NCBI GenBank assembly: GCA_045837725.1
Contig: JBEWZL010000232.1
Span: 62,001 to 126,000, forward strand
DNA length: 64,000 nt
Origin: Vermamoeba vermiformis
Taxonomy: Eukaryota
Direction: 5' to 3'
Made by a program: the position numbers and the translations under genes. Below the pieces are notes generated by a model. That model did no database searches. It saw only the letters and a program-made list of their open reading frames with translations, and had not been told where the DNA came from. Below, piece after piece: positions 7,056-63,906 of the stretch. Each line of letters opens with the position of its first letter. The stretch's first letter is position 1.

Positions 7056-7241
7056 TGTCTGTCGTGCTGCTTTGAATGAAACAAGTATACTGGCAGACTT
7101 TTTTGGCGAGCACGGCTTGTTTTGAACTGTCAACTTTTATTATTCCGTTTGATCTTCAACGTCAATCTCGTGAGATTAGCATTATGCCAAAGACGTAAGG
7201 ACTAGACTTCGAAAGCTATGTAAGAGTTTTACTTTGAAAAG

Positions 7242-9333: not shown

Positions 9334-10814
9334 TATTGTTGACTATAGTGATTATTAGCAGAGATATTTAAATAAACACTGGCGGGAACTTTTTCGACGT
9401 TTCATTTCCCGTCGCGAAATTTTTTGGTTCCATTTGAACGGGACCGGCAATAATATGACCTATCTCCGACTAATTAGTGTTATTATCAATGTTAAAAACT
9501 GAAGTTGTGTTTTTACTATCAATTTCAACGAAGCGCTTCGGGCTAGCTACTTGGGGACGTAAATTAACGCTACGCAACTGGAAGTTGTTAGTGCAAGTGA
9601 AAACACTGTATGCCCTTTCCAGCTCCGCCGTACACCTGCGAGAGTTGCATCCAAGTTGGACCTACTTCGAGGTACCTCAGAGCTGCCCAAGGGGTAGTGC
9701 TAGCTCTGCCGTTCAAGGTAGGAGTTATATCGAGCTGGTATAATATAATTTTGAAGTTTCCACCTCTAAATTTGCTCATGCATGCCACTTCTATTTTTGG
9801 CAACAACAGTTAACTCCGTAATAAAGTAAATATTATTTTTTTTAACGAATAACACTTTCTATTCGGTAATATCTCCGATTTCATGCGATAACTCGCTTGC
9901 AGCCCGTCCTTGCTAATTATCGCTATCACAGTAATATTTCCAAATTTAAATTTTGTTTACAGGAGCAGCTCAGGACCCTTTGTTCGTTTATTGAGAGAAG
10001 AGAGAACGATAAAATTGTATGTACGGACAAATAGTACAATTGTACTCAATAGACGTTCGTCACACTTAGAGATATGAATGAGATTGATATCCGTTTATCT
10101 AACTAATGAATGGATAGTGTATAGTTTATTTGTTCAATCAGTACATTTTACAAATCAAAGTATTCGTAAGGACACCAGATTTATTTTCTACGCAAATGTA
10201 CTGCCTAATTGTCTAATCTTGCAAAGAAAATACAGTGAAGTCGTCGTCGGGATTTATGATTGGAGGAGGAAAACAACCATTGTCGGAGCTTTTAGGTTTA
10301 TCGTCCCACTCTGGCATTGCTAGTTCTTCTTGTGTTGCTGTTCTTATTGGTGAGTTTGTTAAAAAACAAATTGAACGTTGACTTTAAAAGGAAAAAAAAT
10401 CCAGTTAAGGTTCAGAGAAAAAACCACGCGCCAAACCACGTGATAAACTTTGCAGTATTTGTTCGGGCAGGTTTGCTGACGGAGCCACTTTCGCTAATCG
10501 TGTTCCTTTTCAACTAAACTACAAACCCTTAAAAATTTAATGAGCAACGAAAATAAACGTACGCACATTGGGCGCTCAACTTTACTTAACATGCGTTTCA
10601 TTTAGACACAACTCATTCAATCGAACGCAGCTATTTTTATCGGACGGATTTTTACTACTTGTTCATAACGTTGTTCTCGATCCACTCCGCAAGCTTCATA
10701 GACAACGGGCTAGAAAATTTTTAGCATCGGTAAAATTTTATTCAAGAACAACAGTTACTTATGGTTCTCGCATCAAACAATATTTCGTGTTGTATCTACG
10801 CGTTCAACGGTTTA

Positions 10815-16905: not shown

Positions 16906-17925
<1,020 letters not shown>

Positions 17926-42613: not shown

Positions 42614-44817
42614 ATGATTAATAGCATGGAAGTCGGTGTTGACAGTAGCACCAATACTCGTTGGAGCAGTTCTCTTAGGGATGCGATTAAGCAGAACGAA
42701 AACTGGGAGGAGTTGCGAGTGCAAAACGTCGGTCAAACAACGCTGGAGGACTTGCAAAATATATTTCAAGCGTTGGAAAAGAACAGAACCTTGAGAGTGC
42801 TCTCATTGAAGGACAAAACTGCTCAGAGCAGCTTCACTGGACAAGCCGAGCACCCTTTATCAAAAACATACGCCGAAAGCCTGGCTACTAATACGGTGCT
42901 AACGCACTTATCACTAGAAAGTAAGTTTTCTAGCCGAAATTCCATTCAAATTTAATGTTGGATCAGATCTGAAGTTAGGAGGAGTGATTCAATCCCTCGC
43001 CATAGCCTTGCGTCACAACAAAACACTGCAAAGTCTAAGGATTATAGGTACTAGTAATTACTCGAATTCGTTATCGGTTCATAACGTGCTTCAATGCTAG
43101 ACAATTCGTTAACGTCAGAAGACTTAAATAATTTGCGCGAATGCCTTGTGTTTAATAGGACTCTTGCCCATCTCGAGTTGCCAGGTAGGATGCTGTACAA
43201 TACGTGCTCGTTATTAAAATTCGATGAAAGATTATCTCGAAAAGTTCGAAAGTTACGCCTCGGTCATGGCAATCATCGCAGACAACCAGGCAGATAAGGA
43301 TAATAATGCTATGCTCAAAAGACGCGGGCATGGCGAAGAGAATTCAATCAATTCCGTAGCATTGAAAAAGGAATTGGAAGAAATGGCCAAGGAATTAGCA
43401 CGCACGCAAAAAAGCAAGGCAGAATTAATGATAAACAATGAGTTTCTCGAGCAAGTGATCGCTAATAATAGCGAAGCGACAGCAAGGCTAGAACGAGAGA
43501 ATCAAGAGTTGAAGCAGGCCGTGAACGATATAACGGTAGAAGAGTCTGTTAATACTAGCCGAATTGGTCAATTGACACAGGAAATCGTTCACCTAAGACG
43601 AGAGAATAAGATGCAACGAGATCAAATCACTTTGTTGGAACAAAATAGCTTGTTAACAACCAAACAGCTGCAACGAGAAATAAAACTAATCAAGGAAGAG
43701 AACGCAAAGTTGAAGAAGATGCTTGAAGCAGGGGAAAAGAGTGAGCATTCGAGCGATAACAACGAACTGAATGTCGACATCCCATTTGATGAACTGACGA
43801 TTGGAGAGAGCATTGGTGCAGGGGGCTATGGCGAGGTGTTCAAAGCACAGTGGCACGATCAAAACGTTGCTGTCAAGGGCATCAAAATCGAAGACATTGA
43901 GACTGGAAAGATCGACAGCTTGATTCATGAGGCGCGCACTGTGATGTAAGTCCAGTTTCGTGACACCAAATGACACGAGCGAATGACATTTTGACACTTT
44001 ATTTTGACATTTTGGGTCGATAGGCGACTTCATCACAAGCACGTGGTGCTGTCGATGGGCACGACAATGAAACCGGACACCAGCAAGATCATGCTCGTGA
44101 TGGAGTACATGAAGCATGGGTCACTCGAAGACCTACTTTTCAAACACCGTGTCAAGTTACAACGCCATCAAGTGACAGTACTTGCACTCGACATTGCTAA
44201 GGGCTTGAACTACTTGCACTGTCTCACTCCAAAGATCATTCATCGCGACCTCAAATGCGCAAACATCCTCGTAAGTTATCGATTGACACGTGTCACAAAT
44301 TTGATTTCTCTAATCAATTTTGTTCACTAACGCACTACTCTGCCACAGTTGTATCACAACAGATCACGAGCGAAGATTAGTGACTTAGGCACCGCTCGAT
44401 TTTTGAACAAGAATTCTTTGGCCAAGACTTGTCAGGGAGGCACGATCGGTTACTTTGCACCAGAGATTCTCGAAGAAGAAGAATACGACGAGAAAGCTGA
44501 CGTTTATTCGTAAGTGAACAATATTACGCATTAATACAATAGTGCACGTGTCGCTCATCTAATTTTTTAGATTCGGGATCGTGTTGCTTGTTTTAGCCAC
44601 GAGCAGCAACAACTTGCCCACGACTAGAACACCAGCCAAGCTTCGCAGCAGAATCAACGAGCTACTTGATGCATCAGCGACAATGGCCGATGAGGAACAG
44701 TTCAGAGAGCTCGTGCACGATTGCTGTCAAGTAAATCCTAAAGAGCGACCATCGATGAAGCAGTGCATTGATGTGCTAAAGAGTTTGCGTAAAAAACATG
44801 CGAACAACAATAACTAA
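42614..44817 (+). CDS. LRR - coiled coil - TKL protein kinase, array copy K1
   Basis: RI/NLRC3-type repeats (ALEKNRTLRVLSL, LATNTVLTHLSL), coiled coil, IGAGGYGEVF, VAVK, HRDLKCANIL, DLG in place of DFG, APE. Confidence 0.85.
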
Positions 44818-45155
44818 ATCGGCAACAGTTGTTTAAAAGTGAGTGAGAATTTTTTTGTGGATGCGTGTATCATTTTCAATTAGCACGTAAATCCGAATTG
44901 TGACCTCATTTTTCCAACGCTAACTTACCTTCATCAGGGTTGCATGATCGAGTCCAGAGGTGTATGTCGAAACTATTAAAAGATTGAATAAGCAGTAGGA
45001 ACAATACCCAAATACTTGAAACAGACAAACGTCAAACCTGACATGAAACGTATTTCGCCGACAAAAGTGCCTTTTTCATTTGTTTTATGGCCACTGCAAT
45101 TACACAAAGGAGAAAGTTAACTTAATTACTGGTCTCATCTCAAAGCCATTCACGG

Positions 45156-47528
45156 ATGTCGGGTAAGAGCCAAGCACTATTAGGCAATTAAATTAAGCCA
45201 AGCTTTAAAAACGACCAATTAATTATCATTATTAATAAAATTGTAACGATTTTTGGCAATAGTAATTAAATTAATTTTAATTTTCAGAACAGAACGATAT
45301 AACGCACCGTTTATCCGAGGACTCGCAAGTGCTCACGGTGACTATCAGCAAAAATTACCGAAGAAAAGAACCTTGGGGCAATCAGCTGCAGGACTTGTCA
45401 AAGCTTCCTAAATTGAAAGATCTTCGGATTGAGAATGAAGGCACCACGACAGTTAGAGATTTCGAGGGTGTATTTCAAGCCGTGGAGCACAATATTTCGT
45501 TGACACAAATTTCTTTCAAGGATCAGGGGCTGGGACCCAAAAAAACCTTCATGGACAGTTACTCTCCTCTCGGATGGGGCTTCGGTGGTTTTTTTTCTAA
45601 TTCAACGGTTAAATCTCTGTCCTTAGAAAGCAAGTAATTATGTATAATTAATTCTGGTCTAACTATTGTGAAATCAGATCTAGCCCTGAATAATTGCATT
45701 CAACCAATCACTGATGCTCTCTGCCACAATGAAACCTTGCAAAGCCTAATGATAAAAGGTAATTATATGTAAAGGTTAAAATGCTAACTACTTACGCAGA
45801 CAATTCGCTCACCAAACAAGATTTGCGTATTCTGTATGAAGCGTTAATGGTCAACAAGTCGTTAGTACATCTAACCTTACCAAGTACGTTTTGGCGGTCA
45901 TATGATATTTCTTCTATTCTATTGCTACAACGGACTCTAATTTTAATATCAAATTTAGGTCATTTGTCCGCGGAACCAGATTACATAAGAGCGATGAGCT
46001 GTGTTGCAGAGAACAAAAAGTACCTGCAGAGCCAGCGCCACAGAAACCACAGCAACGGCGGGACCGGAGAGCAGCGGCCGACAGAGCTCCAAAAGAGCAA
46101 AGAAATCAAGGAATTAGTGCGAAAGAACAAGGAATCACAAAAGCAATCGATCGATTCAGTGTCTGAGCAAACTCTGAATGCGCAGAAGATCCAACAACTG
46201 ACCAACGAGTGCGAGCAGTTCAAACAAGAAAACAACGCGCTTAAAACTGAAATTTCGCAATTGAAACAAGAAATCGAAGAGCTGAAGCAAGCCAAGCTCT
46301 TGCTTTCAGACACGAACGAGCAGCTTCAGAATCGAAATCGAAGCCTCGAGCGAAGAGCAGACGGAGACGCGGGCGGAGAAGGGAGAGAGAGGCGCACAGA
46401 AGAGGGGACCGAGAGCCCCGAAAGTCAACAAAACGTGAAGTCGAGCAACAACTTTGAGGAAGAATATAAAGCGTTAAAACAAGAGATAGAAGACTTGAAG
46501 AGAGACCTAGCACATGGGACCTCAGTAGATATTCCGCATCAGGAGATAACGCTCGGCGATCCCATCGGAGCTGGTACATTCGGCGAAGTGTACAAGGCAC
46601 TGTGGCACGGCCAAAACATTGCTGTGAAACGAATTAAACTCTCAACCTTAGGACTATCGAGTTTCGAGGACCTTATGCACGAGTCACGCACTGTCATGTA
46701 AGTGACGTTAGTCTACTCATTGCTAGGACCTCGGTCTATAAGGACATCTTTGACAGGCGTCTGCACCACAAGCATATCGTACTATCAATGGGCACCACTC
46801 GAAGGCACGACACAGAGGAACTAATGCTCGTAATGGAGTACATGAAGCACGGGTCGCTTCACAGCTTGCTGTTCCCTAGTGTAGGAAAGTCAGTCAAGCT
46901 AGAACGTCACCAAATCATTCAACTGGCCCTAGATGTCGCCAAAGGCTTGAACTACTTGCATTGTCTCACTCCGAAGATCATTCATCGTGATCTCAAGTGC
47001 GAGAACATCCTCGTAAGTTATCGATTGACACGTGTCATCGTGTTGAACTAATTATTATACCACGTAGTTGTATCACAACAAAACGCGAGCGAAGATCAGT
47101 GATTTTGGCACCGCTCGATTCCTCAACAAGAACTCCGTTGCGAGAACAATTCACGGCACTTTGGGCTATGTTGCACCTGAAGTTTTGGAGGAACAGGATT
47201 ACGATGAAAAAGCCGATGTGTTCTCGTAAGTGGATGTTACTATACTAGACAGGACCGGCCATATTAATCAGTCTGTTTGTTGAGGTTTGGAATGGTATTG
47301 CTGGTTCTGGCCACGAGCTGTGCAAACTTGCCAACGATGCGAGATGCAACGAGACTGCGAAACAGAATCAATGAGATACTTGCAACGAGCCTTGACGATG
47401 ATGACGGGTTGAAGAGGCTTATTATCGATTGTTGTCAAGTTAGTCCCGCTGAACGACCATCCGTCAAACAATGTATTGAAGTGTTGAAAGCACTTCGCCA
47501 AAAAGACACGAACGACGAATACAATTAA
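45156..47528 (+). CDS. LRR - coiled coil - TKL protein kinase, array copy K2
   Basis: ATGTCGG|gtaaga mini first exon, LRR exons, coiled coil, IGAGTFGEVY, HRDLKCENIL, DFG, APE. Confidence 0.85.
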
Positions 47529-47623
47529 AATCTGATTAACATGCTCGTAACACAAAGTGAGAAATATCAACCGAAGCAGGTTGACGAGCACGCGTCAAAA
47601 CGAATGAATTTTGCACTAGGCAT

Positions 47624-47728
47624 GACAGGCGACTGTATCACAAGCGCGCGGTGTTATCAGTAGGTACGGCAATGAACAAAAGGCAATGTTGGTGATGGAG
47701 TAAATGAAACACGGGTCGCTCCAGGACT
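47624..47728 (+). pseudogene. Degenerate fragment of one array kinase exon
   Basis: gacaggcgactgtatcacaagcgcgcggtg...ttggtgatggagtaaatgaaacacgggtcgctccaggac matches RLHHKHVVLSMGT...LVMEYMKHGSL but has a stop codon and a deletion. Confidence 0.7.
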
Positions 47729-48123
47729 AGCTGTTCAATCCAGAAATTTTTGTTCGTATTTTTATTTGGTTGCGTAACAACACGTAAGTCAGCCATTCCA
47801 AATTCTTTTGTAGAGTCTCGTGGCTTTCTTTGAATAACATATTTTTCTTTAGTATTAGTATTACTGGACGCGACAAACCGATCAGATCAACAGAAGAATT
47901 GAATACTGTTTTTTTTTGCCCGAGAGGAAAAAAATACCATAATTGAAATTTGGTTCCCAAAATTAAGTAAAATGGATTGCTATATGCAAAATCAAGAGAA
48001 TCATCGGTATGTAAACAAATCTGACAGATCGATTTTTAGATCTTTTTATGAACCACCACGAATATAATTTTTTTATCAAGGTCTGCGCTGCGCTATATTC
48101 GGGTCAAAGACGTAGGAACTAGA

Positions 48124-51001
48124 ATGACATCTCTAGAACAACGCAACAAAAAAATCGTCCAAGCAGCGGAACCACTCCCTGAAGGCAATCAACTACCAGC
48201 ACGAGTCATTTATTGGTTCGTTACAAATGAAGAGGTCGAGATACATTTTTCTCACAACAAATTCCACTGGCTTTATTCCTTCCCTGTGGTCACCGAGGAA
48301 GGCACGACGTATTATCTGAACCAAATCGAGTTTCGTAAAAGCGGAATAGTAGAGTTTGGATTCTCGGACGGTCATCGAGAGCAATGCTATTCAATGGCGA
48401 AGCAAAGTTCGACCAAAAAAATGAAGGTCAACCAGGGCAACAACAGCGATGCGCAGATGAATTACGAGTCTCAATCACCACAAATATCAGTCCCTGAAAC
48501 CCCGAATAACCATAACAATGCCGATGAAACTATAGTCTACGATGGCAATGGCCTTACGAGAGCGCCTTATCCAGCATCGCGTGACTTGATCGTCAATATA
48601 CTTCTCTTGGTGCCCGATATGAACGAGCTCGTCGACACTTTAGACAAAGAGTTGACCAAGATCGATTTCAAAAAAGAAGTTAGTTCTATCAACCAACACC
48701 TCTATAGTCGAGTTAATTCGACGTACAAGCAATTTCACGTGTTAGTGTTGCCCTACGGCAAATTGAACCAATATTACAAAGTAGCGGAGTACCTGCAATA
48801 CACAACCGAAGTAATTTTGATGGTTGAAGATTCAAGCCAACAGAACGGTCTCATGGCAGTAGAATGCGTGGCAAATGTTAATTACACCCCTCATTACACT
48901 TGGCAATTTGAAGTCAAAACCCAAAGCTTTAAAAAAACAACGCTTGATTTCGCAACGTTGGATCCGTCGGTCACCCTGTTGTTCCAAATAGAGGAGCTTC
49001 AACGAGCAAGCAAAGGCGGCGCTAGCTGCAACGGTGGGCTATCACTTGAAGGACTGCTTTCGAGGTACATTTTGGAGTGGACATTGAGGCCAGTGACCAA
49101 GAGCGCTGCACAAATGATTTATATTTGCTTCAAGTACGAACCAAAGAAAGTCAAGGCGTTTGGCGAGTATGCTGCCGCCTCCTTGGCTGCACTCGGAATC
49201 GAATATGATTTTGAACCACTAGTGGCCCACGGCAGTGTGCTCGTGTACATTCGATGCCCAGCGTACATCCCGTGGTACATTATGATGCGCAAGGACAAGG
49301 TGTTTGACACCCTGGCAGATCTAGGGCTGACAGAGATCTACGAGTGTTTCATCAGCGATGTTGACGCGTCACTTCAACGACCGCAGAATGCGAAGTTAGT
49401 TGCTGAATTGATGTTCTTAAAGGAACAGATGATTAGCGACGGAATAGAGGAGCAACTGGAAAATAGGTATATATCAACCGAAGATAGCAATCGTATTTAC
49501 GTGACTTTGTGCAGGTTCAGAGCAGAAAAGAATGATATAACGTATCTTTTTTCCGAGGACTCGCAAGCGCTCACGGTGACTATCAGCAAAAATTATCCAA
49601 GTGAAGAATATTGGAGCGATCAGCTGCAGGACTTGTCCAAATACCCTAAATTGAAAGAACTTCGGATTGAAAATGAAGGCACCACGACAGTTAGAGATTT
49701 CGAGGGTGTATTTCAAGCCGTGATGCACAATAGTTCTTTGACACAAGTCTCCTTCAAGGATCAGCGGTTGGGACCCAAAAAATCCTTCATGGACAGTTAC
49801 TCTCCTCTAGGATGGGTCGGTGCAGAAAGATATTTCCCGATCTTCAACGATTTTGTGATTAATACGACTGTGAAGTACCTGTCCTTAGAAAGCAAGTAAT
49901 GATGTACAATTAATTCTGGTCTAACGATACTATTGTGAAATCAGATCTAGCCGGCGATTGCATTCGCCCAATCGCTGATGCTCTCCGCCGTAATCAAACC
50001 TTGCAAAGTCTATCGATAAAAGGTAATTATATGTAAAGGTTATAAAGTCTAACTATTCACGCAGACAATTCGCTAACCAAACAAGATCTGCGAATTCTAT
50101 ATGAAGGTTTAATGGTCAATATGTCGTTAGTACGTCTAACCTTACCAAGTACGTTTTGGTGGTCATATGCAATGGATGACATTCTCTATTGTTACAGTGG
50201 ACGCTAATTTCTGTATCAAATTTAGCTCATTTGTCCGCGGAATCAGATTACAAAAGCGCGATGAGCCATGTTGCGGAGACCAAAAAGTACCAGAAAGACA
50301 GTAACATGCTCAAGGAATTCGAGAAAAGAAGAGAAGAACACTACAAGATCTATATTGAATTGCAACGAGAGCAATTGCATGGCTCAACGATGGTGAAGCC
50401 TGAGAACGATCCATTCGGCAAGCACATCGAACAAGTGGCTAATCAGGATGGAACCAACATCCCTGCTATTGTTGATAAAGCTGTTGAATATATCGAAAAC
50501 AAAGGATTGGAAGAAGAAGGCATTTTCAGAATTTCAGCAAGCAAGAGAGACGTCGATCAGCTCAAAGGAGAGATTGCGCAGACCGGTCATGTCGACTTCA
50601 CTGGTATTTTGGATCCACATCTGGTTGTAGATATTCTCAAGGCATATCTACGCGAGCTACCCGAGCCTTTATTGACACTCAAAGCGTACAATAGGCTCTA
50701 CGTACTACATCGACTGAAGGAGCTTGATGATTTCATTAACCAGTCCCGAGAGATCTTCAAATCATTACCGAAAGTTAACTATGCAACCTGTGCACGATTA
50801 TTCCGTCTATTATCAAAGATTGTCGAGAATGCAGCACGTAATCAAATGCGCGCTGTACCATTATCTACCATACTTTCTCCTAACATCTTTTACACTTATG
50901 ATCATATTCTAATGACAGGAGATGATATGTACGAAACATTTCAGATGGAGGTGAAGCTTGTTGCTCTATGGGTCTTGAACGCTTACAAAATATTCAACTA
51001 A
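48124..51001 (+). CDS. Novel N-terminal region - LRR - RhoGAP protein (array copy K3)
   Basis: About 460 aa of unique N-terminus, then an LRR module very similar to K2, then PFGKHIE..IPAIVDKAVEYIENKGLEEEGIFRIS..DPHLVVDILKAYLRELPEPLL..NQMRAVPLSTILSPNIF (RhoGAP with arginine finger). Stop at 51001. Confidence 0.8.
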
Positions 51002-51025
51002 GTGGTGCTCAGTTTGAATATGCTC

Positions 51026-51919
51026 AGCAACTTCGAGGAAGTACATAAAGCACTAAATCAAGAAAGAAGACGTAAAGAGAGGCCTAGCATGCGGAGGGAC
51101 TAGCCACGCTGTGCTTGCGGTAGATATTCCGCGTCACGAGATAACGCTCGGAGGTCTTGTCGGAGCTGGTACATTCGGCGAAGTGTACAAGGCACTATGG
51201 CACGAGCAAAACATTGCTGTCAAGAAGATCAAGCTCGCGGACATCGTTCCTGGTCACTCCACGACCTACTTTTCAAACATAACGTCAAGTTAGAACGTCA
51301 CCGAGTGATTCAATTGGCCCTCGATGTTGCCAAGGGCTTGAACTACTTGCATTTTCTCGATCCCAAGATCATTCATCGCGATCTCAAGTGCGCAAATATC
51401 CTCGTAAGTTATCGATTGACACGTGTCACAAAGTGATTTCTCGTCATCACTAGTATTGCTCACTAATGCACAACTCTGTCGCAGTTATATCACAACAGGT
51501 CGCGAGCAAAGATCAGCGACTTTGGTACTGCTCGGTTTTTGAACAAAAGTTCCGTGGCCAAGACGTTTCAAGGCACGTGGGGATATGTGGCCCCAGCATT
51601 GTTCGAAGATGACCACAAGCACGATGAACGAGCTGAAGTTTATTCGTAAGTAGACCACATATAAATGACATACAAATGTAACATTATCAGATTTGGTATG
51701 GTGCTGCTGACAATGGCAACGAGCAGCCAAAATTTACCAACATCTCGAGTCGCCGACAAAGTTCACGCCAGAATTGACGAGATGCTGAATGGTTCTAGTA
51801 TGGCTGGTGACAAAGACTTTAGAGCGCTCGTGCACGATTGTTGTCAATTCAGTCCCGCTGCACGACCGTCGATGAGGCGGTGCATCGCGATACTGAAGAG
51901 TTTGCGGGAAAAACTTTAA
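51026..51919 (+). pseudogene. Stranded kinase remnant of K3
   Basis: Lies after the RhoGAP stop. A frameshifting deletion joins IAVKKIKLADIVP to SLHDLLFKH; APE is APA and ADVYS is AEVYS. Confidence 0.8.
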
Positions 51920-52469
51920 TTAATCGTGTTGAAGCTGTGGCAGACATAAATGGTTTATTTATCAAGTGATGAATGAGCACTGTACGTAAGTCATTGATTA
52001 CATATTGCTCTCACTTCGAACTCGTCAATTACGGCCATTGTAGCCTCGGTGTTCGACAAGATACCGTTGAGTGGCCAGTGCGGCCATGTTCTTGGTGCAA
52101 CGACTGCTGCAGCTGTTGAGCACAGTGCAGGACTCGAGTGCTGCGCTGGTGACGCGTGAGAGTGCAGTGCACATCTGTGAAGTGACAAGCAGCTACACAC
52201 AGGGCTCATCTGACCGTTCTAACGGCTGTGTGTGCATGTACGCGTCATCAACTCATGCAACAAGTCACAGAGTGCGTGGCAGATGGAGCGTTGGCAGCAC
52301 GTGATTGGTCTGTTGCGCAATCAAGATCTCAATCTCGCACAATTTGCAGCACTCAACTTCAGTACTCTGCTGCAACGTGATCACATGACAGTGATTCAAC
52401 TGATCGCAGCGTAGATGTCAAGTCCTCGCAGCTGAGTCGCAAGATCACCCGAACGAGATCAGCCAACAA

Positions 52470-52725
52470 GGATCGTGCAGCTTGTTTTAGCCACGAGCAG
52501 CAACAACTTGCCACGACTAGAACACCAACCAAGCTTCGCAGCAGAATCAACGAGCTACTTGATTCATCAGCGATAATGGCTGACGAGGAACAGTTCAGAG
52601 AGCTCGTGCACGATTGTTGTCAAGTAAATCCAAAAGAGCGACCGTCGATGAAGCAGTGCATTGATGTGCTAAAGAGTTTGCGTAAAAAATACGCAAACAG
52701 CAACAACTATACCCCAAAACCGTAA
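52470..52725 (+). pseudogene. Orphan copy of the K1 terminal kinase exon
   Basis: Nearly identical to 44576-44811 (LVLATSSNNLPTTRTP..HDCCQVNPKERPSMKQCIDVLKSLRKK) but without the upstream exons. Confidence 0.8.
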
Positions 52726-53005
52726 CACGCGTGGAGTACTCGAGAGCGGATTCAACTTCTGATCGAACAAACCTGATTCTCTGTAATCTTCAAAAATCTA
52801 ATTGTAGCGCTGAAATAAGCTTTTAAAATATTTGAATTAGCAATAAGAACCACACCTAAATTTAATCCTGAACTGACAAACGTCAAACCAAACATGAAAC
52901 GTATTCGCCAAAAGTGCCTTTTTCATTTGTTTTATGGTCACTGCAATTACAAAAGGTTGTCGTGTATAGGAAGTTGATAACGGTCTCGTCTAAATAGCAG
53001 GCCGG

Positions 53006-55155
53006 ATGGGTAAGATAAATGCATCCAACCATTACGCAATTAAATTTAATTAACTTTAATTATTAAGCCAAGTTATAAAGCCGACCAATTAAATATCATT
53101 GGTAATAATTGTGGGCAATTAACAACAATTAATTTTCATTTCAGAAAGGAATTGTATATCGTATCATTTTTCTGAGGACTCGCAAGTGCTCACGGTAACC
53201 ATCAACAAAAATTATCTAAGAAAAGTACCTTGGAGCAAACAGCTGCTGGACCTTTCAGTATACCCGAAATTAAAAGATCTTCGGATTGAAAATGAAGGCA
53301 CCACGAGCATTGAAGATTTTGAGGGTGTATTTCAAGCTGTGGAGCACAGTTCTGTGACACAGGTGTCCTTCGAGGATCAGGAGTTGGAACCCAAAATAGT
53401 CCCTTTCCAAACAAAAGATATCGACGATTTTGAGACTAATACGACTGTGACATATCTTTCCTTAGAAAGCAAGTAATTATGCAATTAAATCTGGTCTAAC
53501 TATTGTGAAATCAGATCTAGACGATCACTGCATCCGATTAATCGCTAGTTCTCTCCGCCGCAATAAAACCTTACAAAGTCTAACGATAAAAGGTAATTAA
53601 GTTTAAAGGTTATACGTGCTAACTTTTCACGCAGACAATTATAAAAAGCTCACCAAACAAACTCTGCGTCGTCTGGATGTAGCGTTAGAAAATAATTGGT
53701 CGTTAGTACACCTAAACTTACCAAGTATGTTTTTGGCGGGCATACGGAATTGCAATATTCCGACATTATGTTACAACGGACGCTAATTTTTATTATTAGG
53801 TCATTTCTGCATGGAATCGGATTACAAAAGCGCGATGAGGCATATTGCAGATACCAAAAAGAAAATTCAGATCCGACAACTGACCACCGAGTGCGAGCAG
53901 TTCAAACAAGAAATCGAAGAGCTGAAGCAAGCCAAGCACTTGCTTTCAGATGCTAACGAGCAACTTCAGAATGGAAATCGACGCCTCGAGCGAGCGGCAT
54001 TCACGGCACGCGCTAAATTGACCTCACTGTTGCAAGAATACAACAAACAAGACCAAGCGATGAGGTTGTTGCAAGAAGAGGTTCGGACACTCAGAGAACA
54101 ACACGCTGTGCTGGCAGTAGATATTCCGCACTACGAGATAACACTCGGAGAGCTCGTTGGAGCTGGTGGATATGGCGTAGTCTACAAGGCTCAGTGGCAC
54201 GGTCAGAACGTTGCTGTCAAGGGCGTCAAAGTCGAAGACATTGAGACTGGAAAGATCGACAGTTTGATTCACGAGGCACGCACTGTGATGTAAGTGCCGT
54301 AGAATGACACGAGCGAATGACGTTTTGACACTTTGTTTTGACATTTTGGGTTGATAGGCGACTCCATCACAAGCACGTGGTGCTGTCAATGGGCACGACA
54401 ATGAAGCCGGACACCAGCGAGATCATGCTCGTGATGGAGTACCTCAAGCACGGGTCGCTTCAGGACCTACTTTTCAAGCACCGCGTAAAGTTAGAACGTC
54501 CCCAAGTCATCCAACTGGCACTTGATATTGCCAAGGGCTTGAACTACTTGCATTGTCTCACTCCGAAGATCATTCATCGCGATCTCAAGTGCGCGAACAT
54601 CCTCGTAAGTTATCGGTTGACACGTGTCACAAATTTGATTTCTTGTCATTGATGACATGTATGGGCTTTCGTTTCAGAGATCTCATTGCTATTTTAAATG
54701 TTCAGTTGTATAACAGCCGCTCGCGAGCAAAAATTAGTGACTTCGGCACAGCGAGATTTCTTAATCAAAATTCGGTGGCAAAAACGTTTCAAGGTACTTT
54801 TGGATACTTCGCACCCGAGCTGGTAGAAGAAGAATATGATGAAAAAGCAGATGTCTATTCGTACGTAGAAATTGTAGTCTTTGAACAGAGATCTAACAGC
54901 AGTTTGTTTAGCTTTGGAATGGTTTTGCTTGTACTGGCGACGAGTAACAGCAACTTGCCCACGACACGAGACCCATCAAAGCTCAGGAACAAGATTGATG
55001 AGATACTGAATACGTCAAGCAGCATGAACAACGATGAACAGTTCAGAAAGCTCGTGCACGATTGTTGTCAGATCAGTTCCACTGAACGACCATCCATGAA
55101 GCAATGTATCGAAGTATTGAAGGCGCTACGCCAAAAACATGCAAATAATAATTAA
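53006..55155 (+). CDS. LRR - coiled coil - TKL protein kinase, array copy K4
   Basis: ATGG|gtaaga first exon, LRR exons like K2/K3, VGAGGYGVVY, HRDLKCANIL, DFG, APE. Splices in frame. Confidence 0.85.
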
Positions 55156-55180: not shown

Positions 55181-57260
55181 TCATTTGCTTTTTGGTTTTA
55201 ACTTCTTTCTTGGATGTTCCTCCGACTCTTGCTCAGGTTCACCTTCATCATCCCTCTTGCGCTTTGTTCCCTGTTATTTATCATTAGCGAAACTGCAAGA
55301 AAAGCAATGGTGTCACCTTTTTGGGGGCCTTTTGGCTCTTATTGGACTTTTTTGCAGCTTTCTTTTCAAGCAATTTTTCCTCTTCCTTCTTCTCAGAAGC
55401 TTCCTCATTGGTGCTCTTTTTCATCTTGGACATTTCCTTCTTCCCAAACTTATGTGCCTTCAGGGCTTCTGACAGAGGGGTCAGTGACTTGTGATCTGCC
55501 CTGATTAGTTGTCCATTGAGAGTGTTTGCATACAAAGTGCCATTGCTAATGCGTTCTGCAATAAATTCTGCAAATATGTGCATCTCCAGCACAGGCATGG
55601 ACAGATAACCTTTTTCACTGTCTGGTACTGGAGTGAATGCAACTATACCCTCTTTGATGAATTTCTTGATGTGTATGTCTTTGTCTGCCTACAAGCATGC
55701 TGAATAAGAGAACTAAATGCACTAGCAGTTGTAGCACTTACTCCAGGGCCCTTAAATACATCCTTGTAAGCAACAGCAGTTTGAGTAATACATGCTGCAA
55801 TGAGACAGTTGTAAGCCTCCACTTTCCTCTTTGCATCGGTTACTCTGGCAGGGTATTTGAAGGAGAACAATTGCTTGACTTGTGATAACAAGGCTTCTGT
55901 GTTGTGTTTTGTGTCATCTGAGCTCAGTGCATGTGCTGCAAACTCAATCATTCTGGTATTGCCTCCTATGGTAAATCAGTATCACATAACCTCTTTGTTA
56001 GGTTAACTTACCAAGCCATGGCAAAGCTTCTTTGACATAGGGGGTGCACACAATCTTTGCAGCATTCATTTTGCAGATTTCATTCAAAGCTTGCTCAAGC
56101 ATCAGGCTACTAGCTTTATCTGTCAAATGTTGAACATGAACCACATTAATTGGGCCACTGCTTAATTCAAGTAACTTTGGTTCTTCTAAAATCTCCTCTG
56201 CTAAAAATGCAGCTGCAATCCCACTGACAACAAGCTGAATCCTGACATTCTGGTGTGTATCACAAAGTTGTTGGATTGCATATTTAAGTTCAATATAGCC
56301 CTTGCCAATGTTTTGAATCTCATCAAGATAGAGAACCAGCTTGAATGGTTTTTTCCTAGTGAACTGCAAATTGTTAGTGAAGTTAGCACAAGCAATTGGA
56401 CAATACCTTTTTAAGGTCATCTGGAAGAATAAGTTCAAGAGTGTGCAGTATAGTGAGTTCTGAGTCTTTTGGATAGGAGATGTTGAGTCGTTCAAGGAGT
56501 TGCCTTGCAATGCTTGATGTAGGTACAACAGTTAAATCAACAATCTTGTCAGCTTTTTCTATTTTCATTTGAGCTTGAACTCCTTGAGGGTGGCTGGTTG
56601 TCTCAGCAGATACCAACTCCAAGTAGCGCAAGCAGAGCCTTGTTTTGCCAATACCACAAGGACCACTGATGACTAGTGTTGGTGGACGACTGCCATCTGG
56701 TGCACCAGCAAAAGTGTAGTTAGAGACCTTAATCATTTCTGTAAGCTCTGGTCTATCAACCCAAGTTTGCAGTGTTGTTGCAACACGTCTAGAGGCTGTT
56801 GGACCAGGAAGGGAATGTCTACGTAGAGTTTCGCTAGGCTTGTGTGAATCTTGCGAGCCACCAAACGAGGCTCGCGTTGCTGGTCTGGAGAGGAACTGTT
56901 GTTCTTTGTCCCTGTCTAAAAATAAGCTTTAGAAACGAACGAAAAGTAACTTTTGTGATATCTTATCCCATTGTGGTAGACATTGATACCTGGTTCCGGA
57001 GCGAGAGACTTCTTTAGGAGGTCGATCTCAGCCCACAAAATACTCGCTGTACCATGTGGCAAACTCATTGCTAAGGTATCAATGCTTTTGATTGAGAATA
57101 GCGCCTGGCCGGTATATTTCTGCTTTTGCAAAACTGCCACGTCGTCTGCGTCAAGGCGCAATACTTTTCGTGCCCAAGCCGCCACTTCTTCAAGTGTCCA
57201 AGCAGGGTTAAGCGTTGGTTTGGTCGTCTTATTCGAGTTGTCTGTTCTCAATTTAGTCAT
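55181..57260 (-). CDS. SAM domain + P-loop NTPase (STAND/AAA-like, Crinkler-type architecture) with basic NLS-like tail
   Basis: WTLEEVAAWA..LQKQKYTGQAL..LPHGTASILWAEIDLLK (SAM); WVDRPEL; Walker A SGPCGIGKT; Walker B LVLYLDEIQ; GGNTRMIE; tail KRKR..PRKKLKPKSK*. Five short introns keep frame. Confidence 0.75.
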
Positions 57261-57825
57261 TAGTTAAGACGTCTTATTGCATGCGTTTTTGGTGCGAAGA
57301 TTCGGATCACTTTGATTCAATCAAATTTTGGGCTACCTTTTGCTGTTAGAAAACTCATTTATCGCGAAATAAGGTTACATTTTAGTTCGGATGAAGTCAA
57401 ACAAAGTACCAAAAAAACTGATTCCGAATCTTCGTCGCCGTAAATCCGCAAATTTAACTATCTTGGGTATATAAAAAACAGCTATTAAGTGTAGAACCTA
57501 TTGTAAATATTGAAAATTAATTTGCAATTAATTTGCCTTGATCGAATTTCATTTTCAATATTGCGAATTGATCATCATTGTAGTTATTTTGTTTATTAGG
57601 TAATTGGCGGCGCCATAATTAATTTCTGCTTATTTTTGGCAGCAATTAGGCCAATTTGTTAAAATAAATATTGTAATTTTACCTCGGGTCTCCATAAGCT
57701 GTTTAGTAATCAGACGATTTAAATGCAAGTAAACAATTGGAATCGATGACGTGGACAGATGAGCAAATCAAAACTTTGAATGGATTTTATGAGCCTTGAC
57801 TTTTTGGCGGTACCAGAAAGAACGC

Positions 57826-58006
57826 AATTGGCGGTAAACAGAACTTGATTGCGAAAACTCAAGAGCAAGAGCGCGTTAAGCACATTAACACTAGTGTAAC
57901 TGATGCACAGCTCAAGCAGTTGATCACCGACTGTTGTGCGACAGATCTGACTAAACGACCAGAGATCGGCGAGTGTTTAGCCAGGTTGGAGAAAATGATC
58001 AAGTAA
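57826..58006 (+). pseudogene. Divergent orphan kinase C-terminal fragment (subdomain XI)
   Basis: QLKQLITDCCATDLTKRPEIGECLARLEKMIK* resembles the array kinase ends; no upstream kinase exons visible. Confidence 0.6.
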
Positions 58007-58101: not shown

Positions 58102-61100
58102 TTATTTGTGCTTGCTCTTCTCTTTCTTCTTGTCCTTGTCCTTCTTGTCCTTGCTGTCCTTCAACATGGTCGTGTCAACATAGCCGGGCTGAGCACCAGA
58201 AGCATTGCCGCCCTTGATGCTGCTCGTGTCCACGTAACTGCCGTTCTTGCTCACCGCACTTGTGTCCACATAGCTGCTGTTCTTATTTGACAAGTTGTTC
58301 GTGTCTACGTAGCTCGCGTTGTTTGTGGTAGGACTGTTCGCAGGACTGCCACGGGAACCACGTGACAAGTTGGACAAGTCGACGTAGCTGCCGTTCTGGC
58401 TTGCGGGACCTGAGCCAGGAGCAGGTGACGAGGACCTGTCGTTCAATGACTTGGTGTCGATGTAACTGCCTCCGCTGGAAGGAGGGCCTTGTGACAGGGG
58501 TCTGCTCAACACCGATGTGTTCACGTAGGCACCGCCAGAACCACCGCGTTCTGTGGAGAAACCAAGCGGCGAGACGTTGCCCAAGTTATCTGAATTGCGG
58601 CGCGTCACTTTGTCTTCAGCAATAAGCGCTGTAGTTCTGCTGCCAGGAGCGGTCATGTTCATTGAAGTAGGCGGTGTGCCGCTCGTTTTGTTGGACAAGT
58701 TGCGCGTGTCAATGTACGTGCCACCATTGTTTGAAGGGCTAGGATTTGAGGTCGTGATACTCGGTGGCAATGTCGCGTAGTTAGACTGCACGGTAGATCT
58801 GTTGCTCGTGTTGCTCAAATTACCCACGGGCTTGTTAGTGCCATTCGTCATGTTTGAGGCAGGACGATTCAACAATGCAGTGTCAATGTAACCGCCTTGC
58901 GTGTTGTTAGTCAAGTTGTTTGACGAGCCAGTAGGTGGCAGACTGGCATAGTTAGACGGTGCAGTGGATCTGTTGCTCGTGTTTGTCAAGTGGCCGAGTG
59001 GCTTGTTCGTGCTATTGTCAGAGGATGCATCAGCTGAAGGCGGCAAGACACCGTACTGCGAAGGAGAGTGCGTGGGGTTGGTCTTGTTAGTCATCATCGG
59101 ATTGGCAGGCATTCCGTGACCTGAGCGGGGAGTGCTTGAGGCCGAAGAGCTGTCAGTCTTGTTCGACAAGTTGTTGCTGTTTTGTTCGGGCAACACTCCG
59201 TACTGCGACGGCGTGTGCGTCCTGTTGGTGTTGAGACCAGGGCTACTTGTTACATTCGAAGACATTCGACGCATTGGGCTATCATCACGAGGTGTGGTCG
59301 GAGGCAAAACACCGTACTGTGATGGCGAGTTGGTCGTGTTAGTTCTGTTGGTACCATTGCCCAACATCGGACTGCCACTAGCGCCAGTAGAACCTGATCG
59401 CGGTGTGCGTGAACCAGCAGAACTGTCACTTTCCTTTCGGCGCGGTGAAACAACATTGGGATCGGTAGGAGGCAAGACACCGTACTGCGAGGGAGTGTGC
59501 GCGTTGGTTCTGTTCGTGGTGTTGGTGGTCAATGGGTTGTTAGTCACCGTGTTGTTCGAGAGACCACTGTTAGTCCTGTTGTCGAGACTGCCGCTCACTG
59601 TCAGATTCGCACTTGAGTCACCAGTAGGAAGAACTCCGTACTGCGAAGGAGTATGTGCACGGCTGGTTGTGTTCGTGGTGTTGGTCAAATTGTTGCCAGA
59701 ATTAGTAACGTTTGGCAAACTGTTGCTCGAAGTGTTCATCGAAGAGGCCGAGTCACCAGTAGGCAACACACCATATTGAGCAGGGCCGCGACCAGCAGTG
59801 TTGGTACGATTGAGCGTGTTCGTTGAGTTGCCGCCAGTCAACGGGTTGTTGGTCACCGTGTTGTTTGACAATCCACTGTTGGTTCTGTTGTCAAGGCCAC
59901 CACTCACTGTCATATTTGAGCCTGAGTCACCCGACGGCAAAACACCGTACTGTGAAGGCGTGTGCTTGACAGTTCGGTTAGTGCCGTTCAAGTTCGAGCC
60001 AGACTGTGTCAAGTTGTTATCTGGCGTGGCTGGAGGAGCACCACCGCCACTCACGGTCAAGTTGGCACCTGAGTCACCAGTAGGAAGAACTCCGTACTGA
60101 GAAGGTGTGTGCCTGACAGTTTTGGTGTTGGTCATGTTGCCCGACTGGGTCAAATTGTTGTCCGAAGCACCAACAGTAGAGCCACCGCTCACAGTCATAT
60201 TGCCTGACTCGCCAACTGGCAACACACCGTACTGCGCAGGACCGCGTTGAGTTCTGTTAGTGCCATTGAGGCCTGTGCCTGACTGGGTAAGATTGCCAGA
60301 CATGCTGAGGCTGCCAGACTGCGTCATGTTGCTGTCAGACAAGCCACCGCTGACAGTCATATTCAGAGCGCTGTCACCAGTAGGCAACACACCATATTGA
60401 GATGGTCCACGGCTAATAGTGTTCGTTGCGTTGGTCATGTTGTTAGCGGGCACTGGGTCCTCTTCGCTGTCCGATTCCACATCAACACCGTCATCAATAA
60501 CAGGCAAGGCACTGGTCGGAGCACCGCCGTCAGTAGAAGGCAGAACTCCGTACTGCGAGGGATTGATGCGTGCTTCAGACAGGCGTTTAGTCACATTTGC
60601 CACTGGCGAGGTGGGTTCAAGAATGGAATAACGGGTGCCAGGGTCTTCGTCTTTTTGAGGCGATGCTGTGGTCACGTTCGTAGTATTGCCGCTGACAATA
60701 GGCGTGCTCACGGTCTGGTTGTTGTTCTGAGAGTTTTCACGGCGGTAACCATCACGTGCAGCTGCGACAAAATAGTTAGTAAACCTTGCATCAAGTATTA
60801 TTTTTTTGCATTAACTTACGAGTATTGAGGGGAATGACATCGTAGGGATTCATCTCGCCTTGCATGTCTTGCGGCACACCCAAGTTGTACTCAACGTTGT
60901 TGGCATTGACGTTGTTAAAGTTCACTGGAGGCTTACGCAAGTCCTTCGCGTCCACATAGCCTTCACCGCCATTGTTGGCAACGTTATTAGGTCCAACGTA
61001 TGATGTGCTTGGCGTGTCAGTTGATTGCTGGAGTCCATTCGCACTGACATCAATGTACCCGGGAGTTGTGGTGCCAGAACCCGAGTCACGTCTGCTGCTA

Positions 61101-63218
61101 CTGCCCGAGTTGATTGGCTGTTGAATGTGTGCTTTGCTGGATCTCTTGCTCATGCTGCCCGATCTCTTCTTGTCAGACTTGTCCTTGTCTTTGTTCTTCT
61201 TTTCTTTCTTGTCCTTAGACGAGGCGTGCTTCAACTTCTTCTTGTCCTTGCTCGTTGACTTTTCCAAATCATCGACGCTGCTCGACGACGGCAAGTCAGC
61301 GTAGTTAGTGCTGTCAGGTGTGCTTGACGAGGCCTGGCTTTGTGTGGCATTGCGAGTTGAGCCAGGTGAGGACATCGGGATTGAAATGTACGTGGTCGGT
61401 GTTTGCACGCGCTGGTTGTCCACTCTATTTTCGTATTTGGGCACCGTAATGAACGTGAGTGTCTCCAAGGGGAGCTTGAATTTATCCGAATTAGCATCGA
61501 CGACTTCTTGCAATGTCGAGTGAGAACGACCGTTGCAGATGTAGCCATTAGCGGTCGGTTGAATCAGCGTGTGTTGCAATTGACCGTCGGCGATGAAGCT
61601 GACAGTCAAGTAGCCTTTACGAGAGCTGAAACGGAACAAGAAAGTGCCTTCAGGCTTGGATTTGAGCAGATCTGCGGCCTCGTCGTTATTTACATCGCCG
61701 TGGAACCAGCTGCAAGTCAAGTTAATAATCTGCACGGAATATTATATATAAATCGATAGTACCTCTCTCGTGTAATGGTCGAGTTAAACGGATTCTTTAA
61801 AATGTAATTGTAGTGGCGGATCAATGATTCTAAATTGTTGAAAACTCTGTTGGATTCGCCCTGAGCATCATTTTCATTGATAGAGTAGCCATTAGGAGGG
61901 CAGAAATGGATCAAAGTATGATTAATGCGCCTAGTTCCATCGACAAAAGCCAACGCAAAAGAGCCCATTTGAGATCGACTGAATCTGATCAAATAAGTGC
62001 CTATCTGTTGAAGCTCTAACAATCGCTCTGCTTCTTCTGAAGTCAAAAATCCATGGAACCATCTGTTATATACAAAATTAGATTCTTAATCATTAAATTA
62101 AAGAGCCTTTAAGGTTTGATCTCGATCGAGATCAGGTAAAACTTATAAAGAAGATACGCACTTGTTATTGACGACATTGCGGAGCTATAATAAGACATAA
62201 TAGTATTAGTAAAGTTGAAATGATATAAGTCAACGCTGGATCTTACATTTTGAATGGAATCTTTGAATGGACCGAAGGCTTTCAAAAACTCGTTAAATTT
62301 CAATAGAGTGACTTCGCCTGTGCCCGAATTATCTATAATTATACGTTAATAATGCACCTAAAATATTACGACCATTGTGGCGTATGAGGCACCAGTATAA
62401 GCCGAGTAAAACCACATCCTCATAAGAAAATTGGAATTCTCATTGTTCCATAGTAGTATAATGATTTAAAAATATAACGTGATTGCATATTGAGTAAAAT
62501 GACCTTGTAACTTACCGAGTACATAACGAAGAGATAAAAGACCTTCCTCATCTATGTCAATTTTTCTTGCTAGAGCGGCTGTAAATTTATTCCATTCGAC
62601 CATAACACCCTAAAATGGCAATTAATGAGTATAAATGACCATATACAAATTATAAATAAAAAAAACAAATTAAAATAATTAATTGGTTGGGCATCCACAA
62701 AATTAATAGACACTAAAATCAGGTAGGCTTACCTCGTCTTCAAAATATTCTTCCCATAATTTACGGCCATCAATATCTTCTAGAATACTCGTGTAATTTC
62801 TTTTTTTCTTTGGCTTCACATCTTTGTCTTTTTTCTTCTTGGTCGCGTTTAATTGCTCTATTTTTGCTACCATGCCTCGTACTAATCCATAAAGGGCTGT
62901 ATTAAGGTGATCTAAATTTCGTCTAACACGAGTGGATTGCATATAGCGCTTTAACTTTTGCTCAGCGTGAATCTTGGTCAAGAAGGTATCATAATCGCCC
63001 AATACTTTGACTAGATCATCTACTGGATTTTTGCCGGTGTCTTCTATGATTCCTTTCACGTTTGAGGCCTGCAGCTCATTATCGATCCGCTCTATAACGT
63101 TTTTAATAGTGACCAGGAAATCCGCATCCACAATTGCTTTGTTTGTTTCAAGGATCTTTTCTATCTTCGTGGCATGCTCCTTGCATTTAGCCAGGTCCTT
63201 TTTTACTTTCGAAGACAT
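58102..63218 (-). CDS. Four-helix bundle (MLKL/Cbl-N-like) + EF-hand-like + tandem SH2 protein with a long tyrosine-motif tail
   Basis: GRKLWEEYF..VEWNKF..DNSGTGEVTLLKFNEFLKAFGPF (Cbl-TKB-like EF), WFHGFLTSEEAERLL..GTYLIRFS and WFHGDVNNDEAADLL..GTFLFRFS (two SH2). An in-frame splice at about 60761-60821 joins the 869-aa repeat exon. Confidence 0.85.
58170..60560 (-). repeat. Coding repeats: 11x P[SA]QYGVLP, 2x SNYA[ST]LP, 9x Y[IV][DN][TL]
   Basis: Counted directly in the 58102-60711 translation; spacers are N/S/T/G-rich. Confidence 0.9.
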
Positions 63219-63603
63219 GTTGTATTCATTACGGCTCGGCGTCAAAATAAATTGAATTTCAGTTGGCTCAAAAATAACCGCAACTCGTGAGCAGCTCACA
63301 CAACGTAGGTAAGACTATCAATATCATGAATATACAGAAGAGAATCGGGGGAGCAATATCCGCCCTTATTTAAATTGTTTTGATTTTTTAAACAACAAAT
63401 CAATAGATCGTGCACGTACACAACACTGCAAAATGGCCGTTTGCCTAGTTTAATAGCCCCCTAGTGTTTCATATCGAGCGAGACTTATTATTACTGAAGA
63501 AGCACCACGTGGTGCTGATTTGTGAACCTCAAACCTGCGAGATTATTGCAGAAAAAACACAACGCATTTTAATCGATTTGACACAAGCTTCAAACACAGC
63601 GCA

Positions 63604-63906
63604 ATGTCGACTATCAAGGAAAGTAAGACTCTCGGAGACGTCTTGTCCTCCAAGAAAAAAGAGAAGAAGGACAAGGATGAGAAGAAGGACAAAGAAAAGG
63701 AGAAGGACAAAAAGAAAGAAAAAAGAAAGAGTGAGATGCGCACTTCATCTTCCACTCGTGAGCTGTCCTCTTCCTCCAAGGTAGACCGCAGAAAGAGTGA
63801 AAAGAGAATGCCGGAAGTTAAAAGGAACGCTAATATGGATGACGACCGGGACGAAGTTAGCATGACTGAAGAAGAGTCTGTGATTAAGGGTCACGAGTTT
63901 GATAAG
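63604..63906 (+). CDS. First exon of a gene with a Lys/Asp/Glu-rich N-terminus (continues beyond window)
   Basis: MSTIKESKTLGDVLSSKKKEKKDKDEKK...GHEFDK followed by a GTTAGT donor; divergent from the SH2 gene. Confidence 0.6.

Follow-up and report, generated by a model that had tools for sequence, protein, structure and literature searches.

The 64,000-nucleotide stretch of Vermamoeba vermiformis DNA analysed here (the window; GenBank assembly GCA_045837725.1, contig JBEWZL010000232.1, positions 62,001 to 126,000) carries on its minus strand, from 63218 to 58102, a gene of seven coding exons for a protein of 1512 amino acids (aa) and about 161 kDa, which is probably a cytosolic, non-catalytic multisite phosphotyrosine docking scaffold. 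The chain runs from a four-helix bundle through an EF-hand-like domain and two SH2 domains into a long tail filled with tyrosine motifs, and these motifs are under purifying selection. The original prediction, made from the letters of the window alone, described a tandem-SH2 protein with more than 20 tyrosine motifs of its own, many of them resembling the inhibitory tyrosine-based motif of immunoreceptors (ITIM), that could self-assemble through its SH2 domains. As a whole, this interpretation is partly supported.

Splice-site reading gives six GT..AG introns of 53-183 nucleotides (nt) with 24-32% G+C, and a spliced frame without internal stop. Splice evidence came from four public runs, two recorded as RNA (X17, X21) and two guessed to be RNA (X1, X2). 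Contigs of X1, X2 and X17 and two raw reads of X21 run from the SH2-2 exon straight into the repeat exon, without the intron that separates them (60761/60820), and all four runs lack the intron between the SH2 domains. Intron 1 is spliced out in three runs and intron 2 in one, while two runs show the 23-nt micro-exon. No contig among the four runs spans the whole gene. The closest match is the Trinity-derived EukProt protein P0001 (Vermamoeba vermiformis, 1498 aa); it is 89% identical to the window protein over exon 6 and comprises both head and tail as a single chain. The predicted splicing of the repeat exon to the SH2 exons is therefore confirmed by contigs of three of the four runs, raw reads of the fourth and P0001. 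The tail behind an SH2 pair was also described correctly, but the predicted end at 61400 falls short of 63218, and the bundle and EF-hand-like domain before the SH2 pair had been missed. The parts of the gene are:

58102..63218, minus strand: whole gene (splice model, junction reads, full-length ortholog P0001)
62733..63218, minus strand: exon 1, with the four-helix bundle, a basic linker and the start of the EF-like domain (splice model, structure model)
62838-63218, minus strand: four-helix bundle, aa 1-127 (Cbl-N / NLR-CC / RPW8 / MLKL-type fold, Z 8.3-10.7; predicted local distance difference test score, pLDDT, 89)
62167..62777, minus strand: EF-hand-like domain, aa 148-228 (Cbl_N2 match on P0001; junctions)
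62516-62609, 62247-62332 and micro-exon 62162-62184, minus strand: exons 2-4, with the rest of the EF-like domain (junctions)
61774..62163, minus strand: SH2-1, aa 230-326, mostly in exon 5 (61763-62062) (Pfam SH2)
61451..61764, minus strand: SH2-2, aa 330-416, start of exon 6 (Pfam SH2)
60820..61450, minus strand: proximal tail in exon 6, with motifs Y437, Y466 and Y619 (Yxx[LIMV]P) and Y548 and Y581 (Y[IV]D)
61133-61249, minus strand: lysine-rich patch within the exon 6 tail (sequence)
60762..60819, minus strand: 58-nt intron, linking the SH2-2 exon in frame to the repeat exon (splice model, run contigs)
58765..60561, minus strand: class I zone, 11 P[SA]QYGVLP followed by 2 SNYA[ST]LP (motif scan)
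58171..58899, minus strand: class II zone, 9 Y[IV][DN][TL] (motif scan)
58102..58161, minus strand: C-terminal lysine-rich patch and stop codon (sequence)

The tail after SH2-2, predicted at about 1100 aa, measures 1096 aa and contains 32 Tyr, 2 Phe, no Trp and no Cys. It is of low complexity, rich in S, N, T, G and P, with evenly spaced tyrosines, and was judged disordered from this composition and from the drop in pLDDT past residue 415. A motif scan of the spliced model reproduced all earlier counts: exon 7 holds 11 P[SA]QYGVLP (9 of them SQYGVL) at distances of 38-58 aa, 2 SNYA[ST]LP and 9 Y[IV][DN][TL], while exon 6 adds TNYADLP, GYIDV, GYVDA and PYDVIP. In all, the tail has 27 tyrosine motifs, 16 of the form Yxx[LIMV]P and 11 of the form Y[IV][DN]. 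In 10,000 shuffles, the first pattern occurred 0.38 times on average and at most 4 times, the second 0.39 times and at most 5 times. The motif density is not due to chance; the patterns were picked after the sequence had been inspected. The first two class II motifs each follow a class I motif closely, Y1251 at 20 aa after Y1231 and Y1309 at 21 aa after Y1288, and these pairs could possibly create a two-handed site.

The motifs are held by selection rather than by recent copying. Nine DNA versions encode the 11 QYGVLP copies, with 161 silent and no replacement differences in 330 codon pairs, and Tandem Repeats Finder detected only short units as arrays in the tail, which means that the repeats did not arise by recent amplification of DNA. 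Between the orthologs (P0001, P0002, P0010), all 32 tail tyrosines are retained and positions -1 to +4 are identical at 29-32 of the 32 sites; away from the tyrosines 440 of 653 residues are kept, and in the head 400 of 419. Both the proposed selection on the tyrosine sites and the conservation in orthologs put forward as its check thus hold. The motifs are indeed near-invariant and the spacers drift, yet less than the earlier description of them as diverging implies.

The same combination of head and array is found well beyond Vermamoeba. Relatives were collected by a head search with the Soliformovum irregulare relative (37 matches) and a 12-member profile search, from which the best 150 of 209 matches were taken (E 1e-30); with the window model this gave 196 proteins, or 173 after removal of 23 cluster duplicates. 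An EF-like domain and two SH2 domains are present in 140 of the 173, and 21, three of them from the Vermamoeba lineage, have at least three Y[GAS]x[LIMVF]P motifs in the part that follows the two SH2 domains. Other array-bearing species include Soliformovum irregulare, Cavostelium apophysatum, Protostelium nocturnum and Planoprotostelium fungivorum. Vermamoeba belongs to Tubulinea, Soliformovum and Protostelium to Variosea within Evosea, and the head with Y-G-x-hydrophobic-P arrays is common to Tubulinea and Variosea. A tree was built with FastTree from 128 proteins out of the 173, without two array proteins that were too short; in it, 15 of 19 array proteins, including the window's, form one clade together with a tail-less fragment (local support 0.894). 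The four others lie elsewhere in the tree, whose deeper branches are weakly supported.

What is it that this family conserves? Among 236 tyrosines in 11 non-Vermamoeba tails, the residue at +1 is Gly in 66% of cases, the one at +3 is hydrophobic in about 80% and the one at +4 is Pro in 63%, but Ser precedes at -2 in only 39%. Of the 205 Yxx-hydrophobic-P motifs in 18 other array proteins, 173 have Gly at +1, 75 have Ser at -2 and 53 fit the full ITIM. The conserved signal is thus Gly+1, hydrophobic+3 and Pro+4, and since so few of the relatives' motifs fit the ITIM, that likeness appears incidental and the earlier ITIM assignment is not supported. The two zoned classes hold for the window protein but not as an ancestral design: Y[IV]D is absent from the tails of the 18 other strict-array proteins, so class II is a local gain of the window lineage within its clade.

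Tyrosine-rich tails are not confined to this motif. By a simple ratio, 25 of 80 two-SH2 proteins with tails of at least 100 aa are Tyr-rich, and other branches have an array consensus of their own: GY[SA]SF-like (Pellita catalonica, Discosea), NxYSGM, EYA or Y[IV]D-like (P0078). Arrays of differing consensus were noticed in the EF-SH2-SH2 proteins P0078, P0084, P0131, P0195 and P0091, and P0032 and P0046 end in a single EYG-type motif. A weak search for SH2-less array proteins with the tail of P0003 returned only this tail among 8000 scored candidates, and an Atlas search with P0003 gave no usable match. We found no account of the family in full-text literature searches, to which most subscription papers were closed and which covered, among others, passages of PMC4053784, PMC4758236, PMC5804921 and PMC3085826. 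Passages of the genome papers count 48 SH2 proteins in Acanthamoeba, 18 in Physarum and 85 in Protostelium aurantium; these passages do not mention tyrosine arrays, but the papers' architecture figures or supplements may draw the head. The text of the Acanthamoeba supplement contains no match to SH2 or Cbl.

The domain order of the head is likewise shown. Pfam recognizes SH2-1 with E 4.5e-15 (plus a weak Cbl_N3 match, 6.9e-5) and SH2-2 with E 6e-16, and in the predicted model both fold like solved SH2 domains, with Z 14-15 and a root-mean-square deviation (rmsd) of 1.4-2 Å. The AlphaFold2 model of the first 429 residues of P0001 (pLDDT 84.8) contains a bundle of helices, followed by the EF-like domain and a pair of SH2 folds, and Cbl_N2, the EF-hand-like part of Cbl, matches P0001 at 30.5 bits against a cut-off of 22. 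In Foldseek searches with the head model, structures of the Cbl tyrosine kinase-binding (TKB) domain fill the top ranks (E about 1e-11); compared as one unit, head and TKB align over 244-259 residues with rmsd 6.8-8.1 Å (Z 14.3 for the 244 residues at 6.8 Å; P0001 model). The bundle alone (pLDDT 89.2) has no Foldseek match at E 0.001, and its structural matches at Z 8.3-10.7, Sw-5b, the coiled-coil (CC) domains NRG1.1 CC-R and Rx-CC, Cbl and MLKL, stand among unrelated bundles. A passage of a review groups bundles of the matched kind by structure (PMC10586772). The four-helix Cbl_N family is not among the best 25 of 38 Pfam families for 24 family rows. Pfam scans of the window protein and P0001 detected no RING, DNA-binding, SAM, kinase, PH, PTB or SH3 domain; there are 3 Cys in 1512 aa, and no transmembrane segment (highest 19-residue hydropathy 0.75).

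The residues expected to read phosphotyrosine are in place, as numbered by position labels that we take from the Src nomenclature. SH2-1 has Arg betaB5, Ser betaB7, His betaD4 and Thr betaD5, and the first three are found in both SH2 domains of the window protein and of all 12 other clade members. Thr betaD5 of SH2-1 is likewise found throughout the clade, in the window protein as in the 12 others, compared with 10 of 113 proteins outside it; sorted by array status, it occurs in 16 of 19 proteins with an array and 9 of 109 without. SH2-2 differs: betaD5 is Thr in the window protein and Gly or Ala in the 12 other clade members, and alphaA2 and betaC3 have also changed in this lineage, the sole one of the clade with class II motifs. 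The change in SH2-2 is a single event, and P0078, which has Y[IV]D motifs, carries Ser, not Thr, at this position.

The genome also holds writers, erasers and readers of phosphotyrosine. The loop HRDLAARN, which a passage of PMC4342544 describes as typical of tyrosine kinases, has 96 genome matches and none in the control, W[IMT]APE has 94 against 8, and at least 23 protein tyrosine phosphatase (PTP) exon matches and at least 33 SH2 matches were counted. QYGx[LIMF]P occurs 35 times genome-wide, 11 times in the window gene and otherwise singly, which makes the array unique to this gene in its genome. NY[GA]x[LIMF]P matches are scattered (82, control 126), [NQHKRS]YGx[LIMF]P is not enriched (178, control 309), and a genome search with the tail, with one match, showed no paralog of it. 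At least four other loci combine EF and two SH2 domains with adjoining RhoGAP/kinase, Ras-like/UBA or weak PP2C-like parts, at the level of unassembled exons. One near intron-free paralog (L020:2661-7313, minus strand, on G000:C137) encodes bundle, EF, two SH2 domains and then about 800 aa; its weak PP2C-like matches look duplicated and lie under the cut-offs (E 0.003-0.009), so that it is possibly a tandem-SH2 phosphatase of non-PTP type. Elsewhere, a gene without SH2 match has two YGSLP motifs 29 aa apart (L026:4106-4504, minus strand, on G000:C44) and is a candidate ligand in trans.

On the strength of these sequence features, we infer the following course of events. The head would bind phosphotyrosine, first on an activated tyrosine kinase or tyrosine kinase-like (TKL) kinase or on its substrate, and would thereby keep the tail near the kinase, where many of the 27 motifs would become phosphorylated. 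The phosphorylated array would then bind SH2 proteins, probably including SH2-1 of the same molecule or of further copies of the protein. Because the sites outnumber the protein's own SH2 domains by about 13 to 1, other SH2 effectors should be recruited too, among them perhaps paralogs that carry RhoGAP/kinase, UBA or PP2C-like parts, and at a reader-to-site ratio of 2:27 their recruitment would matter at least as much as self-binding. Self-binding and condensation are plausible, and tyrosine phosphatases would reset the scaffold. No phosphoproteome was found in the literature search; a passage of PMC2212481 reports basal phosphotyrosine bands of 170, 150 and 120-125 kD in the species. Those at 150-170 kD are unsequenced, and the 161-kDa protein might be one of them, by coincidence of size only.

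Several points weigh against the scaffold model. Phosphorylation of the tail and its binding by SH2 domains are predictions from sequence, and we identified neither a kinase partner nor an upstream ligand. Cbl ligands are described in part of PMC2943896 by the consensus (D/N)xpY(S/T)xxP, with Pro read at pY+4; the full form fits 0 of the 32 tail tyrosines, and Pro+4 is present at 16. Position alphaA2 is Ser or Asn, not Arg, in both SH2 domains, and the overlay of the head on Cbl TKB is loose, with TM scores of 0.34-0.40 and rmsd 8-10 Å for most rows. The link between Thr betaD5 and the array rests mostly on one clade (15 of the 16), and the ortholog test amounts to two independent points, as P0002 and P0010 share one 90% cluster.

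Among the alternatives, self-assembly overlaps with the scaffold model as a special case of it, so the likelihoods we attach to them do not add up to one. This is also the strongest of them, put forward here tentatively: the tail would be read mainly by the SH2 domains of the protein itself. Low phosphorylation would close the molecule in cis and high phosphorylation would cross-link copies into a network or condensate, like a polyvalent STAT, with SH2-1 reading class I and SH2-2 reading class II in the window lineage. Reader and array share one chain in all 21 cases, all of them found through the head. The uniqueness of the QYGx[LIMF]P array against scattered NY[GA]x[LIMF]P matches, the fixed specificity residues of SH2-1, the changes at alphaA2, betaC3 and betaD5 of SH2-2 in the very lineage that gained class II, the paired motifs and the branch-specific array consensus fit this idea as well. 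However, with two SH2 domains per 27 sites, fewer than one site in ten could be occupied, the SH2-2 change occurred once and has its counterexample in P0078, the other EF-SH2-SH2 paralogs could read the sites, and motifs with other residues at -1 are covered by the best 100 of 178 matches. When the complex of the head and a 41-aa stretch of tail with one motif of each class was predicted, with an unphosphorylated peptide and no alignment, the scores were 0.04 and 0.01 against a mark of 0.34, which speaks neither for nor against self-reading. It is conceivable, though not what we would bet on, that the proteins form an old amoebozoan family of self-reading phosphotyrosine polymers, in which a Cbl-like tandem-SH2 reader and the array of its own ligands change together by branch and a condensate switch gathers SH2 effectors.

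The motifs could also act without phosphate, as stickers of a low-complexity, phase-separating domain, as YxxPhi signals that adaptor mu subunits recognize in sorting, or by binding a non-SH2 domain. Evenly spaced tyrosines in an S/N/T/G/P-rich tail, as found here, resemble prion-like domains, and YGVL fits YxxPhi. Stickers, however, need no fixed +1, +3 and +4 residues, all of which are enriched over the 236 tyrosines of the 11 relatives, and the arrays sit behind SH2 domains with an intact phosphate-binding Arg, which renders this reading unlikely.

An ITIM-like inhibitory platform, recruiting a tandem-SH2 phosphatase that damps kinase signalling, is more doubtful still. Its pattern [SIVL]xYxx[LIV] fits 11 of the 32 tail tyrosines, and the paralog on G000:C137 joins EF-SH2-SH2 to PP2C-like matches, but these lie under the cut-offs, most of the relatives' motifs depart from the ITIM and the protein lacks a transmembrane segment. 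No SHP-like SH2-PTP fusion was seen: where an SH2 match and a PTP match share a contig, they are at least about 31 kb apart, with both match sets as lower bounds.

We give even less credit to a phosphotyrosine sink or decoy buffering SH2 proteins or phosphatases, own or foreign. The large excess of near-identical sites would suit it, as would bacterial SH2 effectors without sequence selectivity, described in a passage of PMC6208348; yet the motif is ancient and has been kept in more than one phylum, the genome has no tail paralog and the head is near-invariant, unlike an arms-race gene. Least credible is a phosphotyrosine-triggered executioner, in which array clustering would oligomerize an MLKL / RPW8 / NLR-CC-type bundle that attacks membranes: the best natural matches of the bundle (Sw-5b, Z 10.7, rmsd 3.1, 108 aligned; NRG1.1 CC-R, 10.1; Rx-CC, 9.5; Cbl, 9.2; MLKL, 8.4), MLKL_N matches below the cut-off on 3 of 24 family rows (E 2.3e-4 at best) and Atlas neighbours in MLKL_N / MCAfunc / RPW8 clusters (0.79-0.86, a lead only) point that way, but all Z scores are under the tool's meaningful level for helical bundles and include Cbl's structural bundle, the bundle is internal, not N-terminal, in 23 of 77 EF-SH2-SH2 proteins that have one, and helix 1 of the window protein is basic and hydrophilic.

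Finally, we would like to place the docking scaffold among known systems. By analogy, it would function like IRS, Gab, Dok and Cas with a Cbl-like head while being a member of none. IRS, Gab, Dok, p130Cas and LAT are non-catalytic proteins that join a targeting module to a long disordered multi-tyrosine region, in some cases with motifs that are repeated and zoned by class. The window protein likewise has no catalytic domain by Pfam and a long multi-tyrosine tail, but for targeting it has a tandem SH2 mounted on a Cbl-like base instead of a PH/PTB or SH3 domain or a membrane anchor, its motif is YGx-hydrophobic-P instead of YxxP (one in the tail) or YxxM, and it is not an animal protein. With Cbl, Cbl-b and Dictyostelium CblA it shares the order of four-helix bundle, EF-hand-like domain and SH2, the Cbl_N2 match above cut-off, the top Foldseek ranks and the Pro at pY+4 of Cbl ligands; unlike them, it has a second SH2 in place of linker and RING, overlays loosely, and lacks in its tail the (N/D)-2 or R-1 and (S/T)+1 of Cbl ligands. 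SLP-76/BLNK and STAT proteins combine SH2 and tyrosine sites in one chain, and STATs bind their own phosphotyrosines reciprocally. These have one SH2 and one or few sites where the window protein has two and 27, and Pfam finds no DNA-binding, SAM or kinase domain in it. ITIM receptors with SHP-1/2 resemble it in a loose S-x-Y-x-x-L at 11 sites and in the tandem SH2, which by sequence is nearest SHP2 among solved structures, but they have the transmembrane segment and PTP domain that it lacks, and the ITIM -2 residue is not conserved here. The same head is present in other amoebozoan EF-SH2-SH2 proteins, known by automatic database names, most of which carry RhoGAP, kinase, RhoGEF, PP2C-like or UBA domains or end at the SH2 pair; in the window protein's clade, a tyrosine array takes the place of these enzymes and other domains.

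LAT and nephrin form condensates, and a self-reading polymer, if true, would be a one-component version of such assemblies outside animals and would reveal the native SH2 recognition code of amoebae. If the motifs are phosphorylated, amoebae too have multisite docking scaffolds, which are mostly associated with receptor signalling in animals. Kaneko et al. (PMC6208348), in a passage of their Discussion, state as open whether SH2 domains of amoebae bind their ligands by recognizing motifs. The present family allows a direct test, with a selected motif across two amoebozoan phyla in one chain with candidate readers, and gains further from its branch-specific consensus and a lineage that acquired a second class.

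Some minor features of the gene and its surroundings deserve mention. The tail (58105-61450, minus strand) contains 64 N-x-S/T triplets (NRT, NLT, NMT), where its composition would predict roughly 35 and none of 11 relatives has more than 19, an excess that is unexplained in a cytosolic protein; a secreted mucin-like protein was considered and rejected, as the chain has no hydrophobic leader and includes the SH2 domains. A Pfam DUF7508 match on the tail (E 2.7e-5, under the cut-off, no stretch passing) was treated as noise. Upstream, the gene lies by eye head-to-head with a plus-strand lysine-rich gene about 0.4 kb away (63218-63604), possibly sharing a promoter. Just downstream on the same strand, the gene at 55284-57263 has weak SAM-like and P-loop NTPase (AAA_16, AAA_22) matches under the cut-off and possibly encodes a STAND-like protein. 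A tandem run of coiled-coil and kinase genes with Pfam kinase matches occupies 43218-55155 and 57800-58006 on the plus strand; it includes extra 3' kinase fragments judged by eye (52381-52725, 57800-58006), a RhoGAP exon (E 1.6e-38, 50180-51001) inside one kinase-gene copy, and a 615-aa frame (48052-49899) with no Pfam match. Farther away, a four-unit polyubiquitin gene (16906-17925, plus strand) and a cluster of ankyrin-repeat-like genes (5463-12720, minus strand) were recognized by eye.

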